This document shows, piece by piece, positions 3,231 to 15,906 of a stretch of 64,000 bases of DNA. Position 1 is the stretch's first letter, and each line of letters starts with the position of its first letter. The DNA is from an uncultured virus (IMG/VR IMGVR_UViG_3300027896_000027). Taxonomy: Duplodnaviria; Heunggongvirae; Uroviricota; Caudoviricetes. Both the position numbers and the translations under genes were made by a program. The stretch lies in the IMG/VR virus record IMGVR_UViG_3300027896_000027, one strand, 5' to 3'. The notes beneath the pieces are model-generated. The model had not been told where the DNA came from and ran no database searches. It saw only the letters and a program-made list of their open reading frames with translations.

Positions 3231-4776
3231 TTCTCGGATTGAACGGCAGATTATTGTGGGGATGATTGTTTCAGACCGATTCCTCCAAGAGATTTGCCCG
3301 ATATGCTCTTTGGATGCTTTTCAAGTGGGCTTTGCTCGACGAGTTGCTGGTTGGTGTTTAGATTATTATGAGAGATATAGAAAAGCCCCAGGGAAGCATA
3401 TCGAAGATCTTTATCTCCAGCATAAGGATGAGGTTTTGGAGGATGAGGCAACTCTGTTGCAGAGTTTTCTTGGGGGGATTAGTGACGAGTATGAGAGGGC
3501 TGAAGAGTTTAATGTCCAATATATCTTAGATAAGACAGAGCAGTATTTCAGACTTAATGCTCTTCGGGGCTTAGAAAAGAGACTTCAGAAGGCCGTTATT
3601 AGCGCAGACCCGGAAGGAGGGGAGGAAGCAGTTAAGGCTTTTCGTCGGCCTGGGAGGTTAAAAAGTCAAGGGGTTGATCCTTTGAGAGATATTGATTTTA
3701 TTGTTAATGCTTTGACCCCGGAAGAGGATAATGTAGATATCATTATGAGGTTGCCTGGAGATTTGGGGGAGGCAGCGGGGCCTTTAGAAAGAGGTTTTCT
3801 TGTGGCCGTACAGGCTGAGTCGGGGGTGGGTAAGACCTGGTGGCTTTGGCTTTTTTCTCAGTTAACTGTTTTTGCTGGTTATGATACGGCGTTTTTTAGC
3901 ATGGAAATGAGTAGTCGGAAGATGGCTCCTCGGATTTGGCAGTCGGTTACTGGCTCTCCCAGTACTGTTATTCCAGATCATCAGTTGAGTGGTGATGGCC
4001 AGTTGCTTGTTCCTGTTTTTGATTGTGAGAAGAATCAGATTGGTCAATGTAGGGATGGATGTGGAATAGCCCTGAGAAGTTTGGATGATAAAGGGTTAGG
4101 TCCTCGTCCTACTTATCGGCAAGCTCCCAAAGGGTATCAACCTTGCTCAAAGTGTCGGGGTAGTGGGAATTTTGAAGCTACGGCATGGTGGAAGGAGTCA
4201 GGCAAAAGAGATCGGCTCGATCCAGGAACGGCTCTAAGAAAACATGCTATGCTTGAGCGGTCGGGGAAGTTGAAGAGGGCGGGAAGATTTCATTTAGTTG
4301 AGTTTCCCAGCCGCAAGTATACAATGGAAGATCTTGTTACTTACCTTAATAATCTGGAGTACTATGAAGGATTTGTTCCTTCAGTTATTATTACTGACTA
4401 TGCCGATAAACTTAAGTGGCCCGTTCCAAATGATCCTCGTATCAGTATTTCCCAAATTTGGGAGGCACATCATTCTTTGGCTCAAGAGAGGCATTGTTTG
4501 GTAGTAACGGCTTCCCAGTCTAACACCATGCGTTCCGGAAAGCAAGTGGGCAGGGGTTCCTGGGGTGAGACTCAAGAGAAAGAGCATACCATAGAGGTGG
4601 GCATTGCTTTTAATCAGTCAGCTTCGGATCAGGCTGCTGGTATCATGCGTGCCTCTCTTGTCAAGAAGAGGCATGGGCAAACAGAAAGAATGGTCGAGTT
4701 GGTAATTCTCCAACAGCTTAGTATTGGTAGGCCATATATTGATTCCGTTCGGCTGGTGAAAAGGGAAGAAGGGTGA
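3193..4776 (+). CDS. dnaB: replicative DNA helicase, DnaB-like, with a Cys-rich insertion
   Basis: Walker A AESGVGKT, FFSMEMS, IITDYAD, VVTASQ, KKRHG. Confidence 0.88.
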   Translation: MEPSVRSRKPPIDSRIERQIIVGMIVSDRFLQEICPICSLDAFQVGFARRVAGWCLDYYERYRKAPGKHIEDLYLQHKDEVLEDEATLLQSFLGGISDEYERAEEFNVQYILDKTEQYFRLNALRGLEKRLQKAVISADPEGGEEAVKAFRRPGRLKSQGVDPLRDIDFIVNALTPEEDNVDIIMRLPGDLGEAAGPLERGFLVAVQAESGVGKTWWLWLFSQLTVFAGYDTAFFSMEMSSRKMAPRIWQSVTGSPSTVIPDHQLSGDGQLLVPVFDCEKNQIGQCRDGCGIALRSLDDKGLGPRPTYRQAPKGYQPCSKCRGSGNFEATAWWKESGKRDRLDPGTALRKHAMLERSGKLKRAGRFHLVEFPSRKYTMEDLVTYLNNLEYYEGFVPSVIITDYADKLKWPVPNDPRISISQIWEAHHSLAQERHCLVVTASQSNTMRSGKQVGRGSWGETQEKEHTIEVGIAFNQSASDQAAGIMRASLVKKRHGQTERMVELVILQQLSIGRPYIDSVRLVKREEG

Positions 4777-4955
4777 AGATCTATTTTGCAGGAGGGGCAG
4801 GAGTACAAGAGCGAGAGCTTCTTTGGCTTAAGAAGATTAAGCAAAGGTTGTTGTCTTTTTATGATGTTTCCTGTGAAGGGTCGATTAACTATCGAACGAG
4901 GGCCTTTGAGTTGATAAAAGAAATAAATAAAGGAGGGGAGGGAGGAGAATGCTAA
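4773..4955 (+). CDS. 'IYFAG' module paralog 1 (putative DpdA N-terminal segment)
   Basis: MKIYFAGG...QRLLSFYD; GTG start overlapping the dnaB stop. Confidence 0.7.
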   Translation: MKIYFAGGAGVQERELLWLKKIKQRLLSFYDVSCEGSINYRTRAFELIKEINKGGEGGEC

Positions 4956-5308
4956 CAATAACGAAGAGGTTTGAGTTTTGTTATGGACATCGACTTCCTT
5001 ACTATGATGGTAAATGTTCCAATCAGCATGGGCATAACGCTATTTTAGAGATTGAGGTTGATGGGCCTGTGATTAGTGAAGGGTCGAAGATAGGAATGAT
5101 TGTTGATTTTGGTGATTTGAAAAAAATAGTTGAGGAAGGGACAATTAAAGAGTTGGATCATCAGTACCTGAATGACTTCTTTGATAATCCTACAGCCGAA
5201 AATATTGTTATGTGGATTCGTGATCTTTTGAAGGATAGTCTGCCTGGACTTTGCCGAATCCGATTTTATGAAACACCAGGTTCTTGGTGTGAGTGGAAGA
5301 AGAAATGA
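4949..5308 (+). CDS. queD: 6-carboxy-5,6,7,8-tetrahydropterin synthase
   Basis: GHRL...CSNQHGHN, MIVDFGDLK, LDHQYLN, PTAENI, ETP. Confidence 0.95.
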   Translation: MLTITKRFEFCYGHRLPYYDGKCSNQHGHNAILEIEVDGPVISEGSKIGMIVDFGDLKKIVEEGTIKELDHQYLNDFFDNPTAENIVMWIRDLLKDSLPGLCRIRFYETPGSWCEWKKK

Positions 5309-5481
5309 GGATCTATTTTGCAGGAGTACCAGGGGGAGACCAGAAGCAAAGAGAAGAGGATTTGTATATCCTTTTTGGGGAGAGGTGGAGCAGGTTGATT
5401 AGTTTTTTCTACCAAGAGCAGGCTGAGGTTACCATTCAGGAGATTATAAAAGTTAATGAGAATCTATTTTGCAGGCAATAG
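5305..5481 (+). CDS. 'IYFAG' module paralog 2
   Basis: MRIYFAGVPGG...SRLISFFY; ATG at 5305 overlaps the queD stop. Confidence 0.7.
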   Translation: MRIYFAGVPGGDQKQREEDLYILFGERWSRLISFFYQEQAEVTIQEIIKVNENLFCRQ

Positions 5482-5638
5482 TATTACTCCTTCGGAAGAG
5501 CGAGGGTTTTACAAACTAATTAGATTAAGGATGTTGTCGTATTTCTGGGTTGTTGAAAGGTCATTTTTAATTAAAGTGTTGAGGAGGAGGAAACGTGGAA
5601 GTCACAGAAATCTTTCAAAGCATCGACGGAGAAGTTAA
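5456..5638 (+). CDS. 'IYFAG' module paralog 3
   Basis: MRIYFAGNS...LRMLSYFW. Confidence 0.7.
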   Translation: MRIYFAGNSITPSEERGFYKLIRLRMLSYFWVVERSFLIKVLRRRKRGSHRNLSKHRRRS

Positions 5639-6254
5639 CCTCTGGGGCCAGGGAAGATTGTCAACATTTATTCGTCTTTCTGGCTGTAATTTGTCTTGCA
5701 AGTGGTGTGATACCCCTCAGTCCAAGGTCCCTGGGAAAGGAATGGAAGTTGAAGAGATATTTAGAAAGGTTAGGTCTTTAGGATGTCCAAAGATAACAAT
5801 CACAGGAGGGGAGCCCTTGGTTCAATATGAAGAGGTTCTACGACTAATTGATCTCCTGCTGGTTCGGGGTTTTGGTAATTCTTTTGATGTCTCTGTGGAA
5901 ACTAATGGAACGATTTTCCCTCCTCTAACCTACCTTCAAGATAAACATCTCTCTTGGGTTTTTGATTATAAGTTAGAATATCCTGAGAAGATGCAGCTTC
6001 AAGGGATGCAGAATATTCTCTCCCCTATTCATTGGATTAAGGTTGTAGTTGATGGGGAGGAAAGTTATAAGCAAGCAGTTTGTGTTAAGGATCAGTTTCG
6101 TGAAGCGGGGTGTCGGGCTTCTTTTGCCTTTTCTCCAGTGTTCCATGATTCTATGGCGATTGATCCGGATGAACTGGTCTCTTGGCTGATTAGAGATGGG
6201 CAGTGGGACGTTTGGCTTAATGTCCAAATCCATAAACTGATTTCTGTTCGGTAA
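5595..6254 (+). CDS. queE: 7-carboxy-7-deazaguanine synthase (radical SAM)
   Basis: EIFQSIDGE, FIRLSGCNLSCKWCDT, ITGGEP, VETNGT, QIHK. Confidence 0.93.
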   Translation: MEVTEIFQSIDGEVNLWGQGRLSTFIRLSGCNLSCKWCDTPQSKVPGKGMEVEEIFRKVRSLGCPKITITGGEPLVQYEEVLRLIDLLLVRGFGNSFDVSVETNGTIFPPLTYLQDKHLSWVFDYKLEYPEKMQLQGMQNILSPIHWIKVVVDGEESYKQAVCVKDQFREAGCRASFAFSPVFHDSMAIDPDELVSWLIRDGQWDVWLNVQIHKLISVR

Positions 6255-6272
6255 AAAAAGAGAAAGAAAGGG

Positions 6273-6300
6273 TTTTAAAAAAGCAAATTTCGTATATAAT
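6273..6300 (+). promoter_or_regulatory. promoter-like motif shared with 17937-17964
   Basis: TTTTAAAAAAG-N9-TATATAAT in an intergenic AT-rich gap. Confidence 0.5.
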
Positions 6301-6346
6301 ATAGTTATAGAGTAGTCAAATTTATCAAAGAAAGGAGAAGGTTAAG

Positions 6347-6943
6347 ATGGGATCGAAGCAGTTGACAATGGAGTTGTTGGTTAAGGCGGCAGAGGATTTA
6401 AACAAAGTCCTTGGGCTAAACCCCAATATTGGGACTGAGTTTTCATCCTCTCTCAAAGGGGCAGCGCTCAAGACGGCCGAGGGGAAGTTTATGGAGCAGA
6501 TTGGCAAGGATTTGGTTGAGTCCGCTCAGCTGATCCAACCAACGGACGTCTTGGCCACTGGAACGGTTGATGCTCTGGAGTTGCTCGGGGTTCAGGGGAT
6601 CAGAGATAAGACCAAAACCTCTGGGGAGGAAGGTAAAGCTCCGGCAGAGACTAAAAAAGGAAAGGAGGAAACGGTGAAGACAAAGGAAAAGAAGACTACG
6701 GCGAAAGCGAAGAAGCCACCTAAGGCACCCGCCAAAAAGGCAGAGGTCAATGATTGGGGTCACCGGAAGGGTTCTCAGTCGGAGAAGATTGACGATGTCG
6801 TCAAGAAGCACCTGGCCAAAGACAAAGGGAAGAAGCTGGATGTTGGGGTTCTTGCCAAAGAGACCAAATTATCCAATGCCAGAGTCATCATGCATCTGAA
6901 GCACCTTAAAGAGAAAAAGCTGATTTCGGTCAATTCTTTTTAA
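6347..6943 (+). CDS. Lys/Ala-rich protein with probable C-terminal HTH (DNA-binding?)
   Basis: KKTTAKAKKPPKAPAKK linker; C-terminal LAKETKLSNARVIMHLKHLKEKKLI. Confidence 0.6.
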   Translation: MGSKQLTMELLVKAAEDLNKVLGLNPNIGTEFSSSLKGAALKTAEGKFMEQIGKDLVESAQLIQPTDVLATGTVDALELLGVQGIRDKTKTSGEEGKAPAETKKGKEETVKTKEKKTTAKAKKPPKAPAKKAEVNDWGHRKGSQSEKIDDVVKKHLAKDKGKKLDVGVLAKETKLSNARVIMHLKHLKEKKLISVNSF

Positions 6944-6952
6944 GGAGCTCAG

Positions 6953-7861
6953 GTGCAGAAAATTATTTATAGTCCTCAAATGTTTGAGGAGGATGTCAGG
7001 AGTTTAGTTGATGTCCTCTTCAAACATTATTCAGGGATTTATGGTGTGCCAAGGGGAGGAATCCCTTTGGCTGTTGCTTTGTCCGAGAAGCTTGGTTTGC
7101 CTCTTGTTTCCAGTCCTGATAGTAATACTCTTATTGTTGATGATGTTGTGGCAACAGGTAAAATCCGAGCTCGGTTTATGGAGAATGATTTTGCCTGCAT
7201 TCATGTTAAGACATTTACCCCTCCTGATTTATTTCCCACCTATTATCTTCATCAAGAAGGGGATTGGATTAGTTACTTTTGGGAAGCGGACGAACCCCCC
7301 GTGCATGATCATATTGTTAGACTAATCGAGTACATTGGAGAAGACCCTTGTAGAAAAGGAATGAAGGAAACCCCAGGGAGGATTGTTAAGTCCTGGGAAG
7401 AGATTTTTGCGGGTTATAAGCAAGATCCTCAAGATGTGTTTAAAGTCTTTGATGATGAGGAAAAGCAGTTTGGCGGTTTGGTTTATCTGAAAAATATTGA
7501 ATTCTATTCTACCTGTGAACATCATTGGCTGCCCTTCTCGGGGCAGGCTTTTATTGCATATATTCCCAGTGGTCCTGTGATTGGAGCCTCTAAACTGGCT
7601 CGCCTTCTGGATATCTATGCTCGGAGATTTCAGATGCAGGAACGGATAGGAGAGCAAGTTACAAATGCCTTGATGGAGCATTTGAAGCCCCTGGGGGCGG
7701 CTTGTCTGATTGAAGCTCGGCATTTATGCATGGCTTGTCGGGGGGTTAAGAAACAACACTCGATCATGGGCTATAGCTCGATGAAAGGGCTGTTTTTAGA
7801 TGCCTCAGAGGCTGGTATTGCTGCCCGAAATGAATTGATGGCTTTATGGGGGAAACCGTAA
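6953..7861 (+). CDS. folE: phosphoribosyltransferase - GTP cyclohydrolase I fusion
   Basis: N-terminal GVPRGG and LIVDDVVATG (PRT PRPP loop); C-terminal ETPGR, STCEHHWLPF, GASKLARL, QMQER, HLCMACRGV (FolE). Confidence 0.92.
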   Translation: MQKIIYSPQMFEEDVRSLVDVLFKHYSGIYGVPRGGIPLAVALSEKLGLPLVSSPDSNTLIVDDVVATGKIRARFMENDFACIHVKTFTPPDLFPTYYLHQEGDWISYFWEADEPPVHDHIVRLIEYIGEDPCRKGMKETPGRIVKSWEEIFAGYKQDPQDVFKVFDDEEKQFGGLVYLKNIEFYSTCEHHWLPFSGQAFIAYIPSGPVIGASKLARLLDIYARRFQMQERIGEQVTNALMEHLKPLGAACLIEARHLCMACRGVKKQHSIMGYSSMKGLFLDASEAGIAARNELMALWGKP

Positions 7862-7862
7862 G

Positions 7863-8051
7863 ATGGCTATTGCAAAGAAAGATATTTCCAAAGTGGTTGA
7901 TGTTATTCTGACTTATGCCAGTCTTAAGATGGCCGAAGATTTAGCCGGGGATTTGGTTAAGTTACAACTTTCAAATCAGTCGGCAAGAGAAACATTTAAA
8001 AGAATTAAACAAGAGTTATGGAGGAGGGGGTTGAAGAATGAAGCTAAGTGA
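7863..8051 (+). CDS. hypothetical protein
   Basis: Tightly packed in the operon. Confidence 0.55.
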   Translation: MAIAKKDISKVVDVILTYASLKMAEDLAGDLVKLQLSNQSARETFKRIKQELWRRGLKNEAK

Positions 8052-9030
8052 AATTTGGACCCCGCTGAAAGCCTGTATCTTGGTGACCAGGAAGTGTAAT
8101 TATAAGTGTAGCTATTGTGGAGTTATTGACCATCGGGTTAAACGTGAGCTTTCCGAGGAAGAGTTTAAGAAAGTTTTCTCTGCAACCCGGGCGCTTGGGG
8201 TAGGAATCAATATCATCTTTGGGGGGGAACCCTCTATAAAGCCAGGCATCAAGAAGATGATTGAGTTTTTAAATAAAGAAGGCCATCCGTATGCTTTTAT
8301 CACTAATAGTAGTCTGGCTTTTGAAAGTTACGAGAAGTTGGATTTGAAGCAGTTGTCTTGCAGTGTGGATTTGGTCGAGAGGTTTGATACCGAGAAGTAT
8401 AATGAGTTAAAGTCTTATAGAGGACTACATTTATTGTTATGGATGAGAGGAAGAAGACCAGATATGGATCTTCTTGCCAATGTTGGTCTTAGTCGGTTTA
8501 ATCTTCAGGAAGTGCCAAAGATGGTTGAGTTTTTCTCAGAGCGCAACATTTGGGTTATTGCGACTCCTCTTCATGATGATCCTCTTTTTGAAAGTGAATG
8601 GTTATATAGAAAGTCTGGCTCCCACCCGGGCCGCATCTTGCCAAAGCATGAAAAAGGGTTGCTTGAGTTTTGTGAGAAGATGGTAAGATTAAAGGAGCAG
8701 GGATACTTGGTACATCAGTTTGCATCTTTCTTTACTCACTATCTTCCCCGGTATGGTATTGGCCTGGATTGGCATTGCTCTTTTCCTGCTCATTTGACCA
8801 TAAACCCGGACGGAGGTTTGTTATGTTGTATTGACCGTGCGGGTCTCCGAGTTCGAAAGTACAAGGTGTGGGATCTACTTGATCCTAAGAAGTTAATCCG
8901 TTTTAAGGCTGACTTTGCACTGGATGTTCAAGGTTGTCCTGGGTGTTGTTGGGATCATATTATTGAGAGTGAGCATATGTATAAAGAGAATCCTGAGCAG
9001 GGAAAAAGGAACTTTCAGCATGTCAAGTAA
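8038..9030 (+). CDS. radical SAM protein with C-terminal SPASM/twitch-like Cys cluster
   Basis: CNYKCSYC, FGGEP, ITN; C-terminal HC...INPDG.LLCC...CPGCCW. Confidence 0.88.
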   Translation: MKLSEIWTPLKACILVTRKCNYKCSYCGVIDHRVKRELSEEEFKKVFSATRALGVGINIIFGGEPSIKPGIKKMIEFLNKEGHPYAFITNSSLAFESYEKLDLKQLSCSVDLVERFDTEKYNELKSYRGLHLLLWMRGRRPDMDLLANVGLSRFNLQEVPKMVEFFSERNIWVIATPLHDDPLFESEWLYRKSGSHPGRILPKHEKGLLEFCEKMVRLKEQGYLVHQFASFFTHYLPRYGIGLDWHCSFPAHLTINPDGGLLCCIDRAGLRVRKYKVWDLLDPKKLIRFKADFALDVQGCPGCCWDHIIESEHMYKENPEQGKRNFQHVK

Positions 9031-9688
9031 ACCTGTGTTGCTATTTTCGGGAGGAGTGGATAGTTTTGTTGCTTATCACTTCTTGGGTCGCCCTCAGACC
9101 CTCTTCTTTCATTGTCAGACTCGTTATGCCGATAAAGAGTTAAAGGTTGTCAAAGAGCTTGTTCCAGGGACGATGGTTGATTATTCTTTAGACCTTGGGA
9201 ACCGAGAGTACGGAGAGAAAGCTTATATTCCGTTTCGAAACCTTTTGTTTTTCCTTCAAGCGGTTAAGTACTCAGACGAGGTTATTGTTGCCGGGGTTGC
9301 CGATGATGAGGTTTCGGATAAAAATGAATCTATTTTTAAAGAATTTTCCAGGTTGGCTTCTAAATTAGAGGGAAGACCAATTAAGATAAAAAGTCCTTTT
9401 TGGAAGATGACTAAGAGGGAGGTTGTTAAGTGGTATTTGATGCACATTGGCAATGTTCCAGAGTTAATGAAAACAACCTCCTGCTATGATCCAGTGGAGC
9501 ATTATTGTGGGAGGTGTCCGTCTTGTTTTAGGAAGTGGGTGGCATTTCGGAGCAACCGTATCCCCCTGGACTTCTTTAATCAGGAGTTAATGGATCAGTA
9601 TTACCAAGCTGCTTGGGAGGGAAAGTATCATTTAAGGAGGAATCAAAGTATTATGGAGGTGGTTGATGCGCATCGCAGTAGACATTGA
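9020..9688 (+). CDS. queC: 7-cyano-7-deazaguanine synthase
   Basis: LLFSGGVDS, YIPFRNL, SPF..MTK.EVV, SCY...CGRCPSC; ATG at 9020 has an RBS (the ORF track extends it to 8915). Confidence 0.92.
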   Translation: MSSKPVLLFSGGVDSFVAYHFLGRPQTLFFHCQTRYADKELKVVKELVPGTMVDYSLDLGNREYGEKAYIPFRNLLFFLQAVKYSDEVIVAGVADDEVSDKNESIFKEFSRLASKLEGRPIKIKSPFWKMTKREVVKWYLMHIGNVPELMKTTSCYDPVEHYCGRCPSCFRKWVAFRSNRIPLDFFNQELMDQYYQAAWEGKYHLRRNQSIMEVVDAHRSRH

Positions 9689-9971
9689 TGGCGTGTTAAC
9701 TTTAGAGACAGAGGGGTTTGGTCAGAAGATTTATTCTGAAAGAATTCCAAATCGTGAGAATATTCGTCTTCTGAATGAGCTTCATGATGTGGGTTGTCAG
9801 ATTACTTTATTTAGTTCTCGCTATGAGAAGGATCGTCGAGTTACAGAACATTGGCTTCATAAGCATAAGGTTAGGTTTCATTGTTTGGTTTTGGATAAAC
9901 CTAAGTACGATGCCATTGTGGACGATCGGTCATCGTCTCTTCTGGCTTTAAGACGTGCAATATGTAGATAG
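9666..9971 (+). CDS. minimal HAD-superfamily phosphatase
   Basis: IAVDIDGVL, FSSR, KP.YD.IVDDR. Confidence 0.8.
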   Translation: MRIAVDIDGVLTLETEGFGQKIYSERIPNRENIRLLNELHDVGCQITLFSSRYEKDRRVTEHWLHKHKVRFHCLVLDKPKYDAIVDDRSSSLLALRRAICR

Positions 9972-9986
9972 GGAGGAGGAGGAAAA

Positions 9987-10871
9987 ATGGCAAAAAAGAT
10001 TAGTTTGTTTTTGGACAGTGGAGCTTTTACCGCGAAGAGTAAAGGGGTTGTCATTAATCTTGATGAGTATATTGCCTTTGTTAAAGAAAATAAAGATTAC
10101 ATTGATGTTTACTGTAATCTGGATGTGATTGGTGATCCGGTTGCGACCTGGAAGAACCAAGAGAAGATGGAAAAGGCGGGGCTTGCCCCTCTTCCTGTTT
10201 ATCATGCTGGAGAGCCACGGGAGTATCTGGATCGTTGTATGAAGTATGGGTATTTTGGGGTGGGTGGGGTTGCAGATTCAACAAGTGGAACTCGCTCGGC
10301 GGTTTTTGATTGGGTTTTCTCGATAATTTGCCCAAAGGAAAATGGTTTTCTTCCAACTCATAAAGTTCATGGTTTTGCAATTACCTCTCTTGCCATGATT
10401 CTTTGCTATCCCTGGTTTAGTGTGGATTCGACCTCTTGGGTCATGACGTCCAGGATGGGTTCCGTTTTCGTGCCCAGGGTTAAAGATGGGAAGTGGATCT
10501 ATGATGAGAATCCTTGGAAGGTGATGATCTCGACGCGCTCTCCAGCCCGTCAGGAAGCGGGTCAGCATTTTGATACCTTCCCTCCAGAGGCTCAGAAAGT
10601 GATTATTCGGTATTTTGAGGAAAAGGGTTACCGGGTTGGTCGGTCTGAGTTTCGGATGGAAGGGAAGTCTTATAAGACTAAAGGGGATGAAAGGTGGAAT
10701 GGGGAGTCAGTTGGAGGGAAGAGAGAAGTGGAAAGAGTTTTGGAGGAAGGGCTTTGTAATAGTTATAAGCTCCGAGATGAGATGAATATCATTTATTTTC
10801 TGGATCTTGAAAAGTCAGTGCCGAGATGGCCTTGGCCTTTTATGAGACAGAGAAGGGGACTTTTTAAATGA
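9987..10871 (+). CDS. dpdA: DpdA/TGT-like 7-deazaguanine DNA transglycosylase, apparently lacking the N-terminal segment
   Basis: LFLDSGAFT at residues 7-15, NLDVIGD, PVYHAGE, GVGG, VHGFAIT, YPWFSVDSTSW; lies in the que cluster. Confidence 0.85.
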   Translation: MAKKISLFLDSGAFTAKSKGVVINLDEYIAFVKENKDYIDVYCNLDVIGDPVATWKNQEKMEKAGLAPLPVYHAGEPREYLDRCMKYGYFGVGGVADSTSGTRSAVFDWVFSIICPKENGFLPTHKVHGFAITSLAMILCYPWFSVDSTSWVMTSRMGSVFVPRVKDGKWIYDENPWKVMISTRSPARQEAGQHFDTFPPEAQKVIIRYFEEKGYRVGRSEFRMEGKSYKTKGDERWNGESVGGKREVERVLEEGLCNSYKLRDEMNIIYFLDLEKSVPRWPWPFMRQRRGLFK

Positions 10872-11110
10872 AGACTTATTTTTGTTTATTTAACAATCAG
10901 TGGCCAGGATATGGAAGGGAGGGTTTAGCTTTGAATTTGGTTAACCGGCTTGGGGTTAGGAATGTTGGTCTTATAAACCCTTTACTTTATGGCCCCCTTC
11001 GAGTTGGAGACCGGATAGGTCTAAAGAAGTTTCTTAAAGAGGTGGAAGAAGGCCATATTCCTTCTGCTGACCGGCTTCGTTTAAAGAGGACTGGGATAAT
11101 AGTAGAATGA
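10868..11110 (+). CDS. divergent 'IYFAG'-like module (possible paralog 6)
   Basis: MKTYFCL...GREGL...RLGVRN resembles IKIYFA...QRELL...KLEVRN of 12456-12614. Confidence 0.5.
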   Translation: MKTYFCLFNNQWPGYGREGLALNLVNRLGVRNVGLINPLLYGPLRVGDRIGLKKFLKEVEEGHIPSADRLRLKRTGIIVE

Positions 11111-11286
11111 AAGTTTATCTGGTTACCTGGCTTTATGAGCCATCTCAAAAAGAGTCTCTCGACAAGAAACAGGAGAGTAATCGGTTGCTCTCTTATTTCT
11201 TTTGTATAGACCAAGGAAAGAATTGTCTTAGAGATTACACTGAGAGGAGACAAATAGATGAAGGTAGAAAAAGAGGAATTATTTAA
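11107..11286 (+). CDS. 'IYFAG' module paralog 4 (59 aa; not in ORF track)
   Basis: MKVYLVTWLYEPSQKESLDKKQESNRLLSYFFC...; ATG overlaps the previous stop. Confidence 0.65.
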   Translation: MKVYLVTWLYEPSQKESLDKKQESNRLLSYFFCIDQGKNCLRDYTERRQIDEGRKRGII

Positions 11287-12271
11287 GGCTCTTTCCAAAG
11301 TTCAACCTGGACTTTCGGACAAAGCAATCATCGAGCAAACGGATCATTTTATTTTTGATCAGGATTATGTCAGAACCTACAATGATGAGATCGCGATCTC
11401 TTACCCTTTTAAGTCCGGGTTTTGTACGGCGGTTAAGGCTGACGAGTTTTTTAAACTTATCTCTAAAACAGAGGACAAGAAGATTGATTTGGAAATTAAA
11501 GATAACTTTCTGGTTATGTCAGGGAAGGATCTCGGGCGGGCGAGAATGATCATGGCCTCAGAGGTCAAATGTCCAACTGTTGAAATTAAAGCGCGGCGTT
11601 GGTTCCAGTTGCCCAAGAATTTTCCTGAAGCTATTCGTTTTGCCTCCTTCTCTGCCGATTGGAATATGTTGCAGAAAGAGTTGACCTGTCTTTGGATTAA
11701 AGATCAGTATGTTATATCTTCGGATCGGTTTCGGGCAACAAAGTACGAAATGGATTCTAAACTTCCAGAGTTCCTTTTGCCCGCAACAATTGCTCAAAAA
11801 CTTTGCAAATATACTCCAACTTATTATATTGTAGAGGCAGAGGGTGCTTGGATTCATTTCAGGAATACAGAGGGCATAATTTTTAGCAGTCGGGTGATAG
11901 AGGGTGAGTATCCATATCAGGAAGAAGTATGGGCCACTTTCACTCTCAAAGGGGATATTGTTAAGATTCCTGAAGGACTAAAGGAGGCGGTAGATCGTGC
12001 GAAGATATTTACCCAGGGAATGGTTCGAGGGGATAGCGATTTGATTCAGCTTAAGGTTGACAAGTCTGGAAAGTTGACTTGCCGAGGGGAAGGAACATTG
12101 GGGGATGTTGAGAAAGAGTTTGCTATTGATTACAAAAAGAAAGATTTCGAGATCAAGGCCCCTCCGGAAGCTTTGATTGAGATTCTTACCTATATTAAAG
12201 AGATGAGGGTTTCCAATGATAAGCTGTACTTTAGTGGGCCGAATTTTGAGCACGTTATCTCTCTGATATGA
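11258..12271 (+). CDS. dnaN: DNA polymerase III beta sliding clamp
   Basis: Clamp-like length; SSDRFR, SRVIEGEYP and EAVDRA motifs; sits next to dnaE. Confidence 0.85.
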   Translation: MKVEKEELFKALSKVQPGLSDKAIIEQTDHFIFDQDYVRTYNDEIAISYPFKSGFCTAVKADEFFKLISKTEDKKIDLEIKDNFLVMSGKDLGRARMIMASEVKCPTVEIKARRWFQLPKNFPEAIRFASFSADWNMLQKELTCLWIKDQYVISSDRFRATKYEMDSKLPEFLLPATIAQKLCKYTPTYYIVEAEGAWIHFRNTEGIIFSSRVIEGEYPYQEEVWATFTLKGDIVKIPEGLKEAVDRAKIFTQGMVRGDSDLIQLKVDKSGKLTCRGEGTLGDVEKEFAIDYKKKDFEIKAPPEALIEILTYIKEMRVSNDKLYFSGPNFEHVISLI

Positions 12272-12455
12272 AATGCTCAAATGGTGGAAGTTGGGATCAA
12301 AAACGATGTTATTTTGGGTTACAAACCATGAAATTTATAGCCTATTTATGCAAAAATGGGCCGTTTTTAACGAGTTGGGTCTGGTGTCCGTCTCTTTATA
12401 TTAAGGGTTTGGAAATCGAGCCTTAAACGAGGAGTTTTGGAAGGAGGGAAGAAAG

Positions 12456-12614
12456 ATAAAAATCTACTTTGCAGATACAATTCAACGAGAGCTTCTTGGT
12501 CATAACCAGAAGTTGGAAGTAAGAAATAATCTGGAGTCTTATTTCTTTATTATAGACAAACGACCTGATTGGAAGTCCTGGTGGTGTATTAAGGAGAAAG
12601 CTCGAGATGAATAA
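12456..12614 (+). CDS. 'IYFAG' module paralog 5 with ATA start (52 aa; not in ORF track)
   Basis: AAGGAGG 8 nt before ATA-AAA-ATC-TAC-TTT-GCA; (M)KIYFADTIQRELL...NNLESYFF; no in-frame ATG/GTG/TTG back to the stop at 12402. Confidence 0.55.
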   Translation: MKIYFADTIQRELLGHNQKLEVRNNLESYFFIIDKRPDWKSWWCIKEKARDE

Positions 12615-15600
12615 CTCTGACTTTATTCATCTTCATGTCCATTCTGAGTATAGCCTATTAGATGGCCTTGGCTCTCCGAAACAGTATATGGAGAGAGCAG
12701 TTGAGATGGGGTTTAGGGCTATTGCTATTACAGACCATGGTAACATTGATGGACATTTAAGGTGGCAGGAAGAGTGTAAAAAGGTGGGAATCAAACCTAT
12801 CTTTGGTTGTGAATTGTATATTGTTGAGGACACAGAGAAGAAAGAGAAAGGAGAAGAGAGATTTCATATAACTCTCCTTGTTCGGGATTTTGAGTCCTGG
12901 CAAGCTCTTGCTCGAATGCTTACCTTGGCAAGTTTAGAGGGCTTCTATAGAAAGCCTCGAATAGATAGAAAGGTTCTTCTCAATGAGGCAAAGAAAGGAA
13001 TGGTTATATTAACTGGTTGTTCTGGTTCATTCCTCTTGATGCCCCAGGGTGTTGAGTTACTGATTGAGTTGAGCAAGAATAAAGGGGTGGAGTGTTTTTT
13101 GGAGGTAATGCCCCATAGGATTGAGCGGCAGGTTAAAATTAACCAGCTATGTTTAGAGTTGAGTAAGAAATTTGGTCTTCCTCTTGTTGCTACAAATGAC
13201 TGTCATTATATCAGATCCGATTATGTTAAAGCCCAGGAGGTATTGCTTGCTGTTCAGAGACAGGCTAAATGGAAAGATCCTGACCGATGGAAGTTTGGGT
13301 TTGAAGGACTTCATTTGAGGTCAGCAGATGAAATGATTGTGGAGTTTAAAGCTCAAGGGGTTATTCCTCGTATTCAATATTATCAAGCTATGGCAAACAC
13401 TCGGGAGGTAGAGGAGAGATGTTCGGGCTTTGAAATTCCAAAACGAGGAATAAGTCTTCCGATAACTCGCTACGAGAAGGAACAGCCTGGGGTTGATGTC
13501 AATGAGATTTTGAGTCAATTATGTGAGATTAAAAGGAAGGAGTTTCACACAACGGATAAATGGAATCATGAACATCAGTCAAGGTATTTGTATGAAAGAG
13601 AAATAATTCAAAGGAAAGGGTTCGCTCGTTATTTTCTGATTGTCTATGAAATAATTGAGTGGTGTAAGAAGCAAGGAATTATGATTGGTCCTGGAAGGGG
13701 GTCGGTCGGGGGGAGCTTGGTTGCATACTTGCTCACTATCACCCAGGTTGATCCCCTCCGTTATGGTCTCCTATTTGAGAGGTTTATTTCGGAGGATAGA
13801 ATTGACTATCCTGATATCGATTTAGATTTTGAAGATATTAAGTGTCATCTGGTTAGGGAGCATATTGAGAAGGAGTATGGAGAATTTAATGTTGTAGGCA
13901 TCTCGACCTTCCTTACAATGAAGGGAAGAGGAGTGATTCGAGATGTTGGTCGGGTCTTTGATTTGCCCGCAACTGATGTTGATTTGTTTGCTAAAACTAT
14001 TGATCAAGGGGAGCATGATGAAGGGGTTGTTGCTTTAGAGGGAGATGAAGGAAAGGAAGGGCATCGTTTTAAGAAAAGGTATCCAGAGGAGTTTCGACTG
14101 ATGACAATTCTGGAGGGACAAATTCGGGGGGCAGGACAACATCCTGCTGGGCTTATCATATCTGGTGAAGATTTAAGAGGGGGAGAGCATGGAAGTCTTT
14201 GTCGTCGGTCGGATGTCCTGGTTTGTAATTGGGATATGAATGATTGTGAGTACAATGGGTTGATTAAGATTGATATTCTTAAACTTGGGACCCTGACTGT
14301 TTTAAATGAGGCAAAGAGACTTATAGCCTTGCGTGGGGTTGAGGTTCGGTATGAGAGTTTAGAGCTTACTGATCCAGGTATTTTTCAAATGCTTTCGAAA
14401 GGGGATACTGCTGGGGTGTTTCAGTTCTCGGGTTATGCTTGTACAGAGCTATGTAAGGAAATGGGGGTTGATAGATTTGAGGATATGGTGGCTGTTACAG
14501 CTCTTGCCCGCCCTGGGCCTGCTGATTCGGGGATGACAGATTTGTATATTAAAAGGAAGAGAGGACAGAAGTGGACTCCTCTTCATCCGACTTATGAGAA
14601 AATAACTAAGAACACCTATGGGGTTATGGTTTATCAGGAACAAATGATGAGAGCGATGACAGATTTGGCTGGTTTTAGCAATTCTGATGCAGATAGAATA
14701 AGAAAGGTTATTGGAAAGAAAAGAGATCCAAAAGAGTTTGAACCTTATAGACAAGCGTTTCTGCAAGGATGTCAGGAGAAGAAGACCTTAACTCAGACTC
14801 AAGCCCAGGAGTTTTGGCAAGGGCTTCTTGAATGGGCAAGCTATGGTTTTAATGAAAGCCATGCTGTGGAGTATGCCATGATTGGGTTCTGGACAGCATG
14901 GATTAAAATTCATTACCCCATTGAGTTTCTTTGCGCACAACTTACCTATGGTCCTAATAAAGAGGAGGTAGTGAAAGAAGCTGAGAGATTGGGAATGAAG
15001 ATTGTTACCCCTAAGGTTGGTGTTTCGGATGCCCGACGTTGGATTGCGAAAGGGAACTTTCTTTATATGCCCTTTGTGGAAATCAAAGGAATTGGGGAAA
15101 CCCAGGTTGATAAGTGTGCTACGGTTAAGCAGACTGTTCCCGCCGGTAGTTCCCGGCGGGGTTTCTTTGGACTGAAGGCAGATGTGCCAGTGTTTGAACC
15201 AAAAGGAAAGCTGGAAAAACTTTTAACTGAGGTTCGAGCTTTTGATTCTGACCCCACTGCAGGACCAGAACATTTGGAGGACTATTTTCAGTACTCTTTC
15301 TCCGGGCAAGGGCAAAGCAAGTTGAAAATTGAAGTTGTTAGAAAAAGAATGATGATTAATCCAATACTTCTCCGATGTAAGGCTTGTGGGTTGAGGAGTC
15401 AGGCCAATCGGGTTGTTCCTTGCTCCCTTGGTATGTATAATGCTATTGTTCTGGGTGAATCCCCTGGGAAGGAAGAAGATGATAAAGGAATGGGATATGT
15501 TGGTCCTGCAAGTAAGCCTCTTTGGGAGGAGCTGGCGGATTATGGTATAGTTCGTCGAGCTATACATGTGGGGAATGTTTGCAAATGCTGGCCTTCTACA

Positions 15601-15906
15601 ACTAAGACTCCTTCTAAAAAGGAGCTTGATGAGTGTTTTGAGAGATGGACAAAAGAAGAGATTCTTTCCATGAACTGCCGCTTGATTTTGGCAACAGGCA
15701 ATATTCCTCTTTATGCCTTAACTGGGCGAGAGTCTGGAATCTCTTCTTTGAGTGGTCAGATAGAATGGGTTGAGAAAGTAAAGGCTTGGGTCGTTTGGTG
15801 TGTTCATCCATCGGCAGTTCTACGGAATCGACAACAGAATTTTAAACCTTTCAGAGAGGGGATAAGAACATTTGCAGAAACTTTCAATAAAGGAATTGGA
15901 AGATGA
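12607..15906 (+). CDS. dnaE: DNA polymerase III alpha with C-terminal family-4 uracil-DNA glycosylase domain
   Basis: PHP motifs HLHVHSEYSLLDG/TDHG; GPGRGS, PDIDLDF, KIDIL, YGFNESHA; from ~15361 CKACGL, GESPG..ED, NVCKC.P, HPSAVLR (UDG4). Confidence 0.93.
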   Translation: MNNSDFIHLHVHSEYSLLDGLGSPKQYMERAVEMGFRAIAITDHGNIDGHLRWQEECKKVGIKPIFGCELYIVEDTEKKEKGEERFHITLLVRDFESWQALARMLTLASLEGFYRKPRIDRKVLLNEAKKGMVILTGCSGSFLLMPQGVELLIELSKNKGVECFLEVMPHRIERQVKINQLCLELSKKFGLPLVATNDCHYIRSDYVKAQEVLLAVQRQAKWKDPDRWKFGFEGLHLRSADEMIVEFKAQGVIPRIQYYQAMANTREVEERCSGFEIPKRGISLPITRYEKEQPGVDVNEILSQLCEIKRKEFHTTDKWNHEHQSRYLYEREIIQRKGFARYFLIVYEIIEWCKKQGIMIGPGRGSVGGSLVAYLLTITQVDPLRYGLLFERFISEDRIDYPDIDLDFEDIKCHLVREHIEKEYGEFNVVGISTFLTMKGRGVIRDVGRVFDLPATDVDLFAKTIDQGEHDEGVVALEGDEGKEGHRFKKRYPEEFRLMTILEGQIRGAGQHPAGLIISGEDLRGGEHGSLCRRSDVLVCNWDMNDCEYNGLIKIDILKLGTLTVLNEAKRLIALRGVEVRYESLELTDPGIFQMLSKGDTAGVFQFSGYACTELCKEMGVDRFEDMVAVTALARPGPADSGMTDLYIKRKRGQKWTPLHPTYEKITKNTYGVMVYQEQMMRAMTDLAGFSNSDADRIRKVIGKKRDPKEFEPYRQAFLQGCQEKKTLTQTQAQEFWQGLLEWASYGFNESHAVEYAMIGFWTAWIKIHYPIEFLCAQLTYGPNKEEVVKEAERLGMKIVTPKVGVSDARRWIAKGNFLYMPFVEIKGIGETQVDKCATVKQTVPAGSSRRGFFGLKADVPVFEPKGKLEKLLTEVRAFDSDPTAGPEHLEDYFQYSFSGQGQSKLKIEVVRKRMMINPILLRCKACGLRSQANRVVPCSLGMYNAIVLGESPGKEEDDKGMGYVGPASKPLWEELADYGIVRRAIHVGNVCKCWPSTTKTPSKKELDECFERWTKEEILSMNCRLILATGNIPLYALTGRESGISSLSGQIEWVEKVKAWVVWCVHPSAVLRNRQQNFKPFREGIRTFAETFNKGIGR

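Follow-up and report, generated by a model that had tools for sequence, protein, structure and literature searches.

A family of small phage genes likely to complete the DpdA transglycosylase core in trans

Introduction

The hallmark enzyme of phages that modify their DNA with 7-deazaguanines is DpdA, and the determinants of its target sites, and of modification levels that differ greatly, are at issue. Here we describe dpdA and a family of small genes that accompany it in an uncultured tailed phage (IMG/VR record IMGVR_UViG_3300027896_000027), analysed as a 64 kb stretch, hereafter the window, of a 77,960-base contig; scans for the small genes covered the window, about 14 kb of the contig lying outside it. 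Several known arrangements form the background to this locus: (i) the eukaryotic tRNA-guanine transglycosylase (TGT) QTRT1/QTRT2, in which two complete barrels pair, one being the catalytic subunit and the other a full-length inactive paralogue; (ii) type I restriction-modification, in which exchangeable or phase-variable HsdS specificity subunits set the DNA sites that are modified; and (iii) the fragment complementation of TIM barrels in the laboratory, achieved with engineered HisF halves and PRAI fragments.

The best named relatives of the enzyme considered here are the single-chain DpdA proteins of phage 9g and Nonagvirus (phrog_887). For the solved bDpdA of S. Montevideo (7ui4), the published account describes an enzyme that replaces guanines of DNA by preQ0, with a nucleophile, Asp256, on the last barrel strand and a general acid/base residue, Asp95, at the end of β3, and assigns to an insertion between β1 and α1 (Ins1) a contribution to the DNA-binding surface (PMC10164549).

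In the window, dpdA encodes a catalytic core that starts at the third barrel strand, and five small open reading frames (ORFs) resemble the N-termini of full-length DpdA. We document the strands missing from the core and the homology, conservation and synteny of these small genes, which we call N-modules, and consider it likely that DpdA is here a two-piece enzyme whose core is completed in trans by the modules.

The DpdA core and its missing strands

The central gene of the locus is the following:

9987..10871, + strand: DpdA catalytic core, 294 amino acids; phrog_887 'queuine tRNA-ribosyltransferase', E-value 2.8e-43, profile positions 55-257

The ORF opens with MAKKISLFLDSGAFT, its start codon lying six residues ahead of the motif LFLDSGAF; this feature, and the coordinates and motifs of the five small ORFs, had been given in an initial annotation of the sequence and proved correct when checked again. 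Over core residues 2-219 the protein is 37-38% identical to the DpdA of phage 9g and Nonagvirus, the match on 9g beginning at residue 64. The AlphaFold 2 (AF2) model of the core (predicted local distance difference test, pLDDT, 91.7) contains six barrel strands (residues 7-9, 39-43, 71-73, 89-93, 126-130 and 145-147), which correspond to β3-β8 and are followed by a C-terminal sheet and helix. Residue 1 of the model falls on residue 85 of the solved DpdA 7ui4 (Z 12.3, root-mean-square deviation [rmsd] 4.4, 222 aligned) and on residue 93 of Z. mobilis TGT (Z about 12), and comparison with 1j2b_A (Z 12.9, rmsd 3.0, 205 aligned) places it among TIM barrels of the TGT type. Because these alignments start at TGT residue 93 and DpdA residue 85, and because there are six strands only, the modelled core is without β1, α1, β2 and their loops; it does not form a complete (β/α)8 barrel in one polypeptide. 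The long-form homologue P0012, also modelled with AF2 (pLDDT 89), has a strand (2-6), a helix (18-26) and a strand (31-34) preceding the LFLD strand, is assigned the TGT fold by Foldseek, and aligns over about 250 residues with Z. mobilis TGT (Z about 18, rmsd about 3.2), its residue 1 lying on TGT residue 40.

Residues D10, S11, G12, D147 and S148 do not vary among 76 homologues of the short form. With residue 1 of the core at residue 85 of 7ui4, D10 of LFLDSG lies at about the position of bDpdA Asp95, the general acid/base; D147 of SVDS, on strand 145-147, is a candidate counterpart of the nucleophile Asp256 (PMC10164549). The structural zinc motif of bDpdA and TGTs, CxCx2C...H, was not found on reading the 294-residue sequence. 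Pfam assigned no family to the core or to any module at an E-value of 0.1 or below, and a reading of 'MKIYFAG' as nucleoside deoxyribosyltransferase-like was dropped for that reason. A search of PDB sequences with the core returned chance matches to PsaL only, at E-values of 0.4 or above.

Several relatives (L027, 432-2310; L048, 3255-5114; L051, 3509-5326) have DpdA cores with an in-frame insert of about 330 residues, located directly before the catalytic SVDS strand and with junctions that resemble those of inteins (YPWY/C...GN/SVDS). Pfam gave one weak LAGLIDADG_3 match for these inserts (E-value 0.004), and one search came back blank.

Five small ORFs related to DpdA N-termini

A module profile was constructed from the 33 N-termini of full-length proteins (at least 44 residues before LFLDSGAF) present among 120 close DpdA homologues, with the ORFs of the window excluded, and was run against the 1436 six-frame, stop-to-stop ORFs of at least 25 amino acids in the window. 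The first five ranks were taken by these ORFs:

4773..4955, + strand: N-module A, 60 amino acids, MKIYFAGG...RLLSFY; GTG start; profile E-value 1.2e-7
5305..5481, + strand: N-module B, 58 amino acids, MRIYFAGVPGG...RLISFF; ATG start; E-value 3e-9, top of 1436 ORFs
5456..5638, + strand: N-module C, 60 amino acids, MRIYFAGNSITP...RMLSYF; E-value 7.4e-8
11107..11286, + strand: N-module D, 59 amino acids, MKVYLVTWLYEPSQ...RLLSYF; E-value 1.4e-5
12456..12614, + strand: N-module E, 52 codons, IKIYFADTIQRE.LGH...NLESYF; E-value 0.067, rank 5 of 1436

They scored in the order B (3e-9), C (7e-8), A (1e-7), D (1e-5) and E (0.067), the next ORF reaching 0.6, and under an iterated profile the E-value of module E fell to 1.4e-5. 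The pattern that the initial annotation had recognised in these five ORFs is likewise confined to them, since a regular expression for the two motifs, applied to all six frames of the window, found both together nowhere else. The statement made there that full-length relatives run from a similar opening directly into the DpdA motif was also borne out: xIYxAG...RLxSY followed by LFLDSGAF is found in 33 of the 120 close homologues, and in 9g by eye.

Modules A to E are closely interleaved with their neighbours. Module A shares 4 nt with the end of the helicase gene and 7 nt with the beginning of the QueD gene; B is joined to the QueD stop by an ATGA overlap; C overlaps B by 26 nt and the QueE gene by 44 nt, its tail running in another frame; D extends over 4 nt of the ORF at 10868 and 29 nt of the clamp gene; and E overlaps the gene for PolIII-alpha by 8 nt. 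In the closest relative, L002, whose core is 60% identical, each of the five has a positional orthologue and their order is unchanged. The orthologue of A lies at L002 4370, and the closest fused counterpart of A is the N-terminus of P0033 (37% over 54 residues). B (orthologue at L002 4537, 26/55 identical) represents the type found joined to the core in relatives of the long form, the nearest fused N-termini being those of P0121, P0038, P0025 and P0012. C (orthologue at L002 4697, 30/46 identical) is nearest to the fused forms P0033 and P0105. The D type, for which an alignment of 18 orthologues was made (A3), occupies the position directly downstream of dpdA in most relatives.

Module E lacks ATG, GTG or TTG at its head, the codon at 12456-12458, 8 nt after GGAGG, being ATA. 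On this point the initial annotation, whose pattern for the five ORFs opens with M, needs correction; its assignment of E to the family stands. The orthologue at L002 12686 has an ATG start and is identical at 34 of 51 positions, and all 29 proteins of the E-type family (46-65 amino acids) begin with Met, in the form MK/MR-I/V-Y; for these reasons we regard E as a true member whose start in this genome is non-canonical, newly mutated or mis-assembled.

The proposal of a divergent sixth module at 10868-11110 did not survive, this ORF scoring -0.8 bits against the iterated module profile, which leaves five modules. It encodes 80 amino acids, matches no family, and fills the space separating dpdA from module D, meeting each of them in an ATGA overlap. 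A further idea, that the small ORFs are precursors of ribosomally synthesized and post-translationally modified peptides acted on by a radical SAM protein of the locus (8038-9030), was dropped, since they match DpdA N-termini and travel with dpdA.

Distribution and synteny of the module family

A profile of 64 free modules, searched against 1.84 billion representative sequences, retrieved 651 clusters at E-values of 1e-3 or below, and 46 at 1e-10 or below; of the 150 best, all but a few are 44-117 residues long, with a match that starts at residue 1. Within 25 viral loci found through their cores, the iterated profile detected one to seven modules per locus, every hit (100/100) lying on the strand of dpdA. 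A search with the D type identified 44 viral loci, 29 of them on contigs outside the first set, and in each of the 44 a DpdA core lies upstream on the same strand, within about 2.5 kb. The analysis covered 69 related viral loci, and in every one of them module genes adjoin dpdA and share its strand. The co-occurrence that had been expected of related phages is in this respect complete (44/44 and 100/100); the expectation that the partner would be a truncated dpdA held less well, because modules also stand beside full-length genes, as described below.

Several types recur. AGTPG...REREWQ...RLLSFWDI is usually found directly upstream of dpdA; AGVPGGG...KRERE...RLWSYYHL is the type fused in long forms; ATWL..SQG.SLTKK..RLLSYFF, directly downstream of dpdA, is module D of the window. 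Further types are ASTAPGNE, AGGMT and ADTIQR..LGH..LESYF, the last being module E of the window. Across all of them, M1, A6, L26 and S28 are near-invariant and lie within the two strand motifs MKIYxA and RLLSY, and the types differ in the loop between β1 and α1 and in the segment after β2, both of which are conserved within each type.

Judged from these sequence comparisons, the modules are a gene family and not debris. The contrary view, that they are decaying duplicates of the 5' end of dpdA left by duplication or recombination, or gene-calling noise, is disfavoured and seems to us highly improbable: it could draw on the ATA codon that replaces the start of module E, the mutual overlap of B and C, and the overlap of the C and D tails with downstream genes, but it does not account for five types kept in the same order in L002 beside a core that is only 60% identical, for types that each form an orthologous family over many contigs, for five ORFs that are all intact and of which four overlap the end of the preceding ORF, or for the 651 clusters in the protein library.

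Some modules occur in unusual settings. A 6.5 kb viral contig (L033) bears two DpdA cores, at 1124 and 3323, with three module genes between them. At L067 7439-10174 a module of the type ASVGHQQAL...ILFSYYDLSG continues in frame, with no stop, into a 919-codon ORF resembling a uracil-DNA-glycosylase (UDG) or polymerase, which could be a fusion or merely an unstopped overlap. D-type modules are attached in P0126 and P0127 to a part resembling NUMOD4/HNH_3 homing endonucleases, and four other D-type proteins have a C-terminal extension of about 55 residues (YYYYHPESDS...).

Repeat tracts in module genes of relatives

Module genes of relatives encode the RERE motif by (AG)5-8 or, in L017 (3440), by a G9 run; tracts were located in L005 (9917), L012 (127), L020 (209, 374 and 2194), L022 (9589 and 9911), L024 (538) and L025 (3597). 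Many modules of relatives are out of frame exactly at the tract, among them a module fused to DpdA. Within 451 kb of DNA, 16 of the 20 tracts of (AG)5 or longer lie inside module genes, which make up 3.9% of that DNA, and there are no CT tracts. As far as can be judged from the DNA, this looks like repeat-driven switching of module genes. The window's own five modules contain neither (AG)n with n of at least 4 nor a long homopolymer, the kind of repeat that shifts the frame in phase-variable genes.

Modelled complex of the core with module D

Module D was chosen for complex modelling because, of the five, it is least like the fused type and most tightly linked to dpdA; it was the single module modelled, in three runs with the core, alongside three control partners. 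The complex of core and D scored 0.88, the best control 0.00; in calibration, 116 of 157 solved complexes attained this mark, as did 2 of 215 mismatched pairs. The runs agreed in at least 98% of contacts, with a pLDDT of 76-77 for the partner, and the pLDDT of the core was 86-87 with D, compared with 73-75 with unrelated partners. In the model, residues 26-30 of D (RLLSY) pair with core residues 7-9 (LFL), and residues 2-6 of D with core residues 145-148 (SVDS), giving the strand order β8-β1-β2-β3 that is expected for closure of the barrel. The multimer check that the initial annotation had called for, as run for D, thus placed the peptide in the β1/β2 slot (0.88 against 0.00), and the models support binding of D in this empty slot of the core.

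Fused and free modules and the alternatives they bear on

Among the 120 close homologues of the core, the long form accounts for 33 and the short form for 81, the other 6 being intermediate. On a quick tree of the cores the fused and unfused states are scattered, with 25 changes for 33 long forms, of which at least 13 are forced by well-supported branches. Several distinct module types occur fused in cis: the N-terminus of P0033 is similar to A and C, whereas those of P0121 and P0012 are similar to B. The proteins P0230 and P0246 (354-362 amino acids) have three tandem N-modules, each with a Met start, before a single core. Taken from the sequences, the picture is of one slot that could be filled by many alternative heads, in cis or in trans.

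Several observations weigh against completion of the core by free modules. (i) Free modules also adjoin full-length DpdA genes (for example in L011, L013, L018 and L023), so that a simple gene split is insufficient and a missing piece is not the whole story. The suggestion in the initial annotation that the first barrel elements are provided in trans accordingly stands as regards the absent β1-α1-β2 and the modelled place of D, and falls short as a plain division of one gene. (ii) A search among longer proteins for a fused D type gave 6 hits, none of them DpdA, and local BLAST for fused counterparts of D and E gave only E-values of 0.005 or above, the E type having been searched at near lengths only. 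(iii) The calibration counts for the score of 0.88 are only a rough guide, since our own alignments were used. (iv) Any homologue of the missing barrel piece would be expected to pass, and the result may reflect likeness to solved, complete TGT and DpdA barrels. (v) AF2 folds the core alone at a pLDDT of 91.7, and modelling therefore cannot tell whether the core needs a partner. (vi) Module E is without a canonical start codon in this genome. As to the first point, completion in trans would require the added assumption that full-length loci, where the slot is otherwise filled in cis, also make a headless core from an internal in-frame ATG. Such an ATG, 6-13 codons ahead of LFLDSG, is kept in all 19 long forms of the examined loci; Shine-Dalgarno motifs, examined as possible ribosome-binding sites for it, are weak in many of these phages.

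The confidence of AF2 in the core alone, the majority held by short forms (81 of 120) and the (β-α)2 size of the modules would also be in keeping with a self-sufficient core, the mini-proteins acting elsewhere (for example on host TGT or a Dpd-type defence) or assembling with one another as quarter-barrels. We think this distinctly improbable, as the synteny with dpdA in 44 of 44 loci, the repeated fusion and the modelled fit all indicate the core as the partner. We know of no precedent for a six-stranded, open TGT barrel without the loops through which bDpdA contacts DNA, and this too counts against a core acting by itself.

Less easily set aside, although we regard it as unlikely, is the explanation that the core has one cognate head, most likely B, and that the other modules enter the same slot as regulators, which switch off or time the enzyme or tether it to proteins of the operon. 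Distinct jobs are suggested by the kept docking strands together with loops that are type-specific and strongly conserved (ADTIQR..LGH in the 29 E-type proteins); D and E types were not found fused to the core, the D type persists alongside full-length DpdA, and the L067 module lies in frame with the UDG-like/polymerase ORF. On the other hand, the conservation of M1, A6, L26 and S28 over all types, at positions predicted to be close to the catalytic face, would fit a part in catalysis better than blocking, and types like A and C do occur as cis N-termini on otherwise similar cores.

Genomic setting

The window represents a tailed phage whose genes all lie on the + strand, and their products include a primase, a replication initiator, a DnaB-like helicase, a clamp, PolIII-alpha, a clamp loader and a UvsX-like recombinase, together with terminase, portal, major head and tape measure proteins. 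One public DNA run, from a freshwater metagenome, contains the stretch and is probably its source; no RNA run containing it was present among the public runs listed. The 7-deazaguanine gene block is situated between the helicase and polymerase genes and includes, besides dpdA and the modules:

4949..5308, + strand: QueD (6-pyruvoyl-tetrahydropterin synthase family), preQ0 pathway; PF01242, E-value 4.9e-33
5595..6254, + strand: QueE-like radical SAM enzyme, preQ0 pathway; PF04055, 6.4e-14; PF13353, 3.1e-8
6953..7861, + strand: GTP cyclohydrolase I (FolE); PF01227, E-value 2e-57, residues 119-285
8038..9030, + strand: second radical SAM protein, between FolE and QueC
9020..9688, + strand: QueC, preQ0 pathway; PF06508, E-value 5.7e-18
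9663..9971, + strand: small HAD-like protein

Synthesis of preQ0 is thus linked to dpdA, with FolE, QueD, QueE and QueC all encoded within 5 kb upstream of the core. The GTG start of QueE is preceded by GGAGGAGG. FolE has an additional N-terminal region of about 110 residues with a weak phosphoribosyltransferase-like match (E-value 0.018). The second radical SAM protein, which is Cys-rich in its C-terminal part, matches no specific family; its product may be another derivative of 7-deazaguanine. PolIII-alpha (12607-15906) combines PHP, NTPase and finger domains with a C-terminal domain of the uracil-DNA-glycosylase superfamily (PF03167, E-value 2.4e-18).

Discussion

We propose that the DNA 7-deazaguanine transglycosylase of this phage would be made in two pieces. 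The dpdA product would provide β3-β8 with the putative catalytic residues D10 and D147, and the first quarter of the barrel (β1-α1-β2, about 40 residues) would be separately encoded as the five diverged paralogues A to E, presumably co-transcribed, and for the most part translationally coupled, with genes of preQ0 synthesis and replication. On docking, β2 of a module would insert beside β3 of the core and β1 beside its last strand, closing the barrel and supplying the β1/α1 and β2/α2 loops to the catalytic face. As the five modules keep both docking strands and differ mainly in these loops, they would most likely compete for one slot and yield alternative holoenzymes; the scheme extends docking from D to the other four modules and supposes that the core needs a module.

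The most probable consequence of exchanging modules would be an altered preference for DNA context and, through it, wider protection from restriction. We infer a link between head and DNA context because the β1/α1 insertion Ins1 helps to form the DNA-binding surface of the S. Montevideo enzyme, and see interchangeable DNA specificity by head swapping as plausible, if tentative. Slightly more speculative is the fuller idea of a combinatorial enzyme, in which five quarter-barrel subunits would let one core place 7-deazaguanine in several sequence contexts and relatives would switch heads by slippage at their (AG)n or poly-G tracts; such a system would correspond, in phages, to phase-variable specificity subunits.

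Were the scheme correct, the substrate-facing quarter of DpdA, as a separate, multi-copy and exchangeable gene, would offer a direct handle on its specificity; the phages would possess a new route to diversify their anti-restriction protection; and the enzyme would be a rare natural TIM barrel built from (β-α)2 and (β-α)6 pieces, with a bearing on the evolution of barrels. For annotation, hundreds of genes of 45-70 codons that are now hypothetical or uncalled belong to the module family, and 'short' DpdA calls are not errors of truncation.

Comparison with known systems

The DpdA of phage 9g and Nonagvirus shares with the core of the window the motif LFLDSGAF, and the 9g locus shares the neighbourhood of FolE, QueD and QueE and, immediately downstream, genes for a clamp and a DNA polymerase. 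The 9g protein differs in having its own 63-residue N-terminal part in the same chain (QIYMAA...NILESWHY...KIFLDSGAFS). The iterated profile found no free module in the 9.8 kb 9g locus and did not detect the 9g N-terminus at an E-value of 1e-3 or below, its likeness to the modules being apparent by eye only. The C-terminal 75 residues of the window core do not align with DpdA of the 9g type. With S. Montevideo bDpdA, as described in its report, the core has in common the TIM barrel of the TGT type and the Asp on β3, and differs from it in that bDpdA is one chain of about 400 residues with eight strands, a CxCx2C...H zinc site, a large insertion (Ins8) and a partner ATPase, DpdB (7ui4; PMC10164549).

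A description of the split-core and module layout was not found in searches of the published literature on DpdA, supplementary files lying outside the scope of the search; the available part of a survey of DpdA subfamilies (PMC10516641, NAR 2023) mentions no truncated or shorter DpdA, its references to splits and N-termini concerning other matters.

Likenesses of a more general kind extend to other systems. QTRT1/QTRT2 (for example PDB 7b2i) belongs to the same transglycosylase superfamily and likewise functions with two unlike chains, whereas phage DpdA would divide a single barrel, with the small piece in five versions. HsdS offers a functional analogy, in that one catalytic core would be served by alternative small subunits and the module genes of relatives carry frame-breaking repeat tracts; there is no homology, HsdS is separately folded and not a quarter of the catalytic fold, and the modules of the window have no repeat tract. 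With the HisF and PRAI fragments the modelled enzyme has in common a barrel assembled from separate pieces; the phage case would be a natural division into (β-α)2 and (β-α)6, with a family of paralogues for the small piece. Set beside these systems, the layout represents a known enzyme in a new architectural form, one that is widely distributed among uncultured phages.

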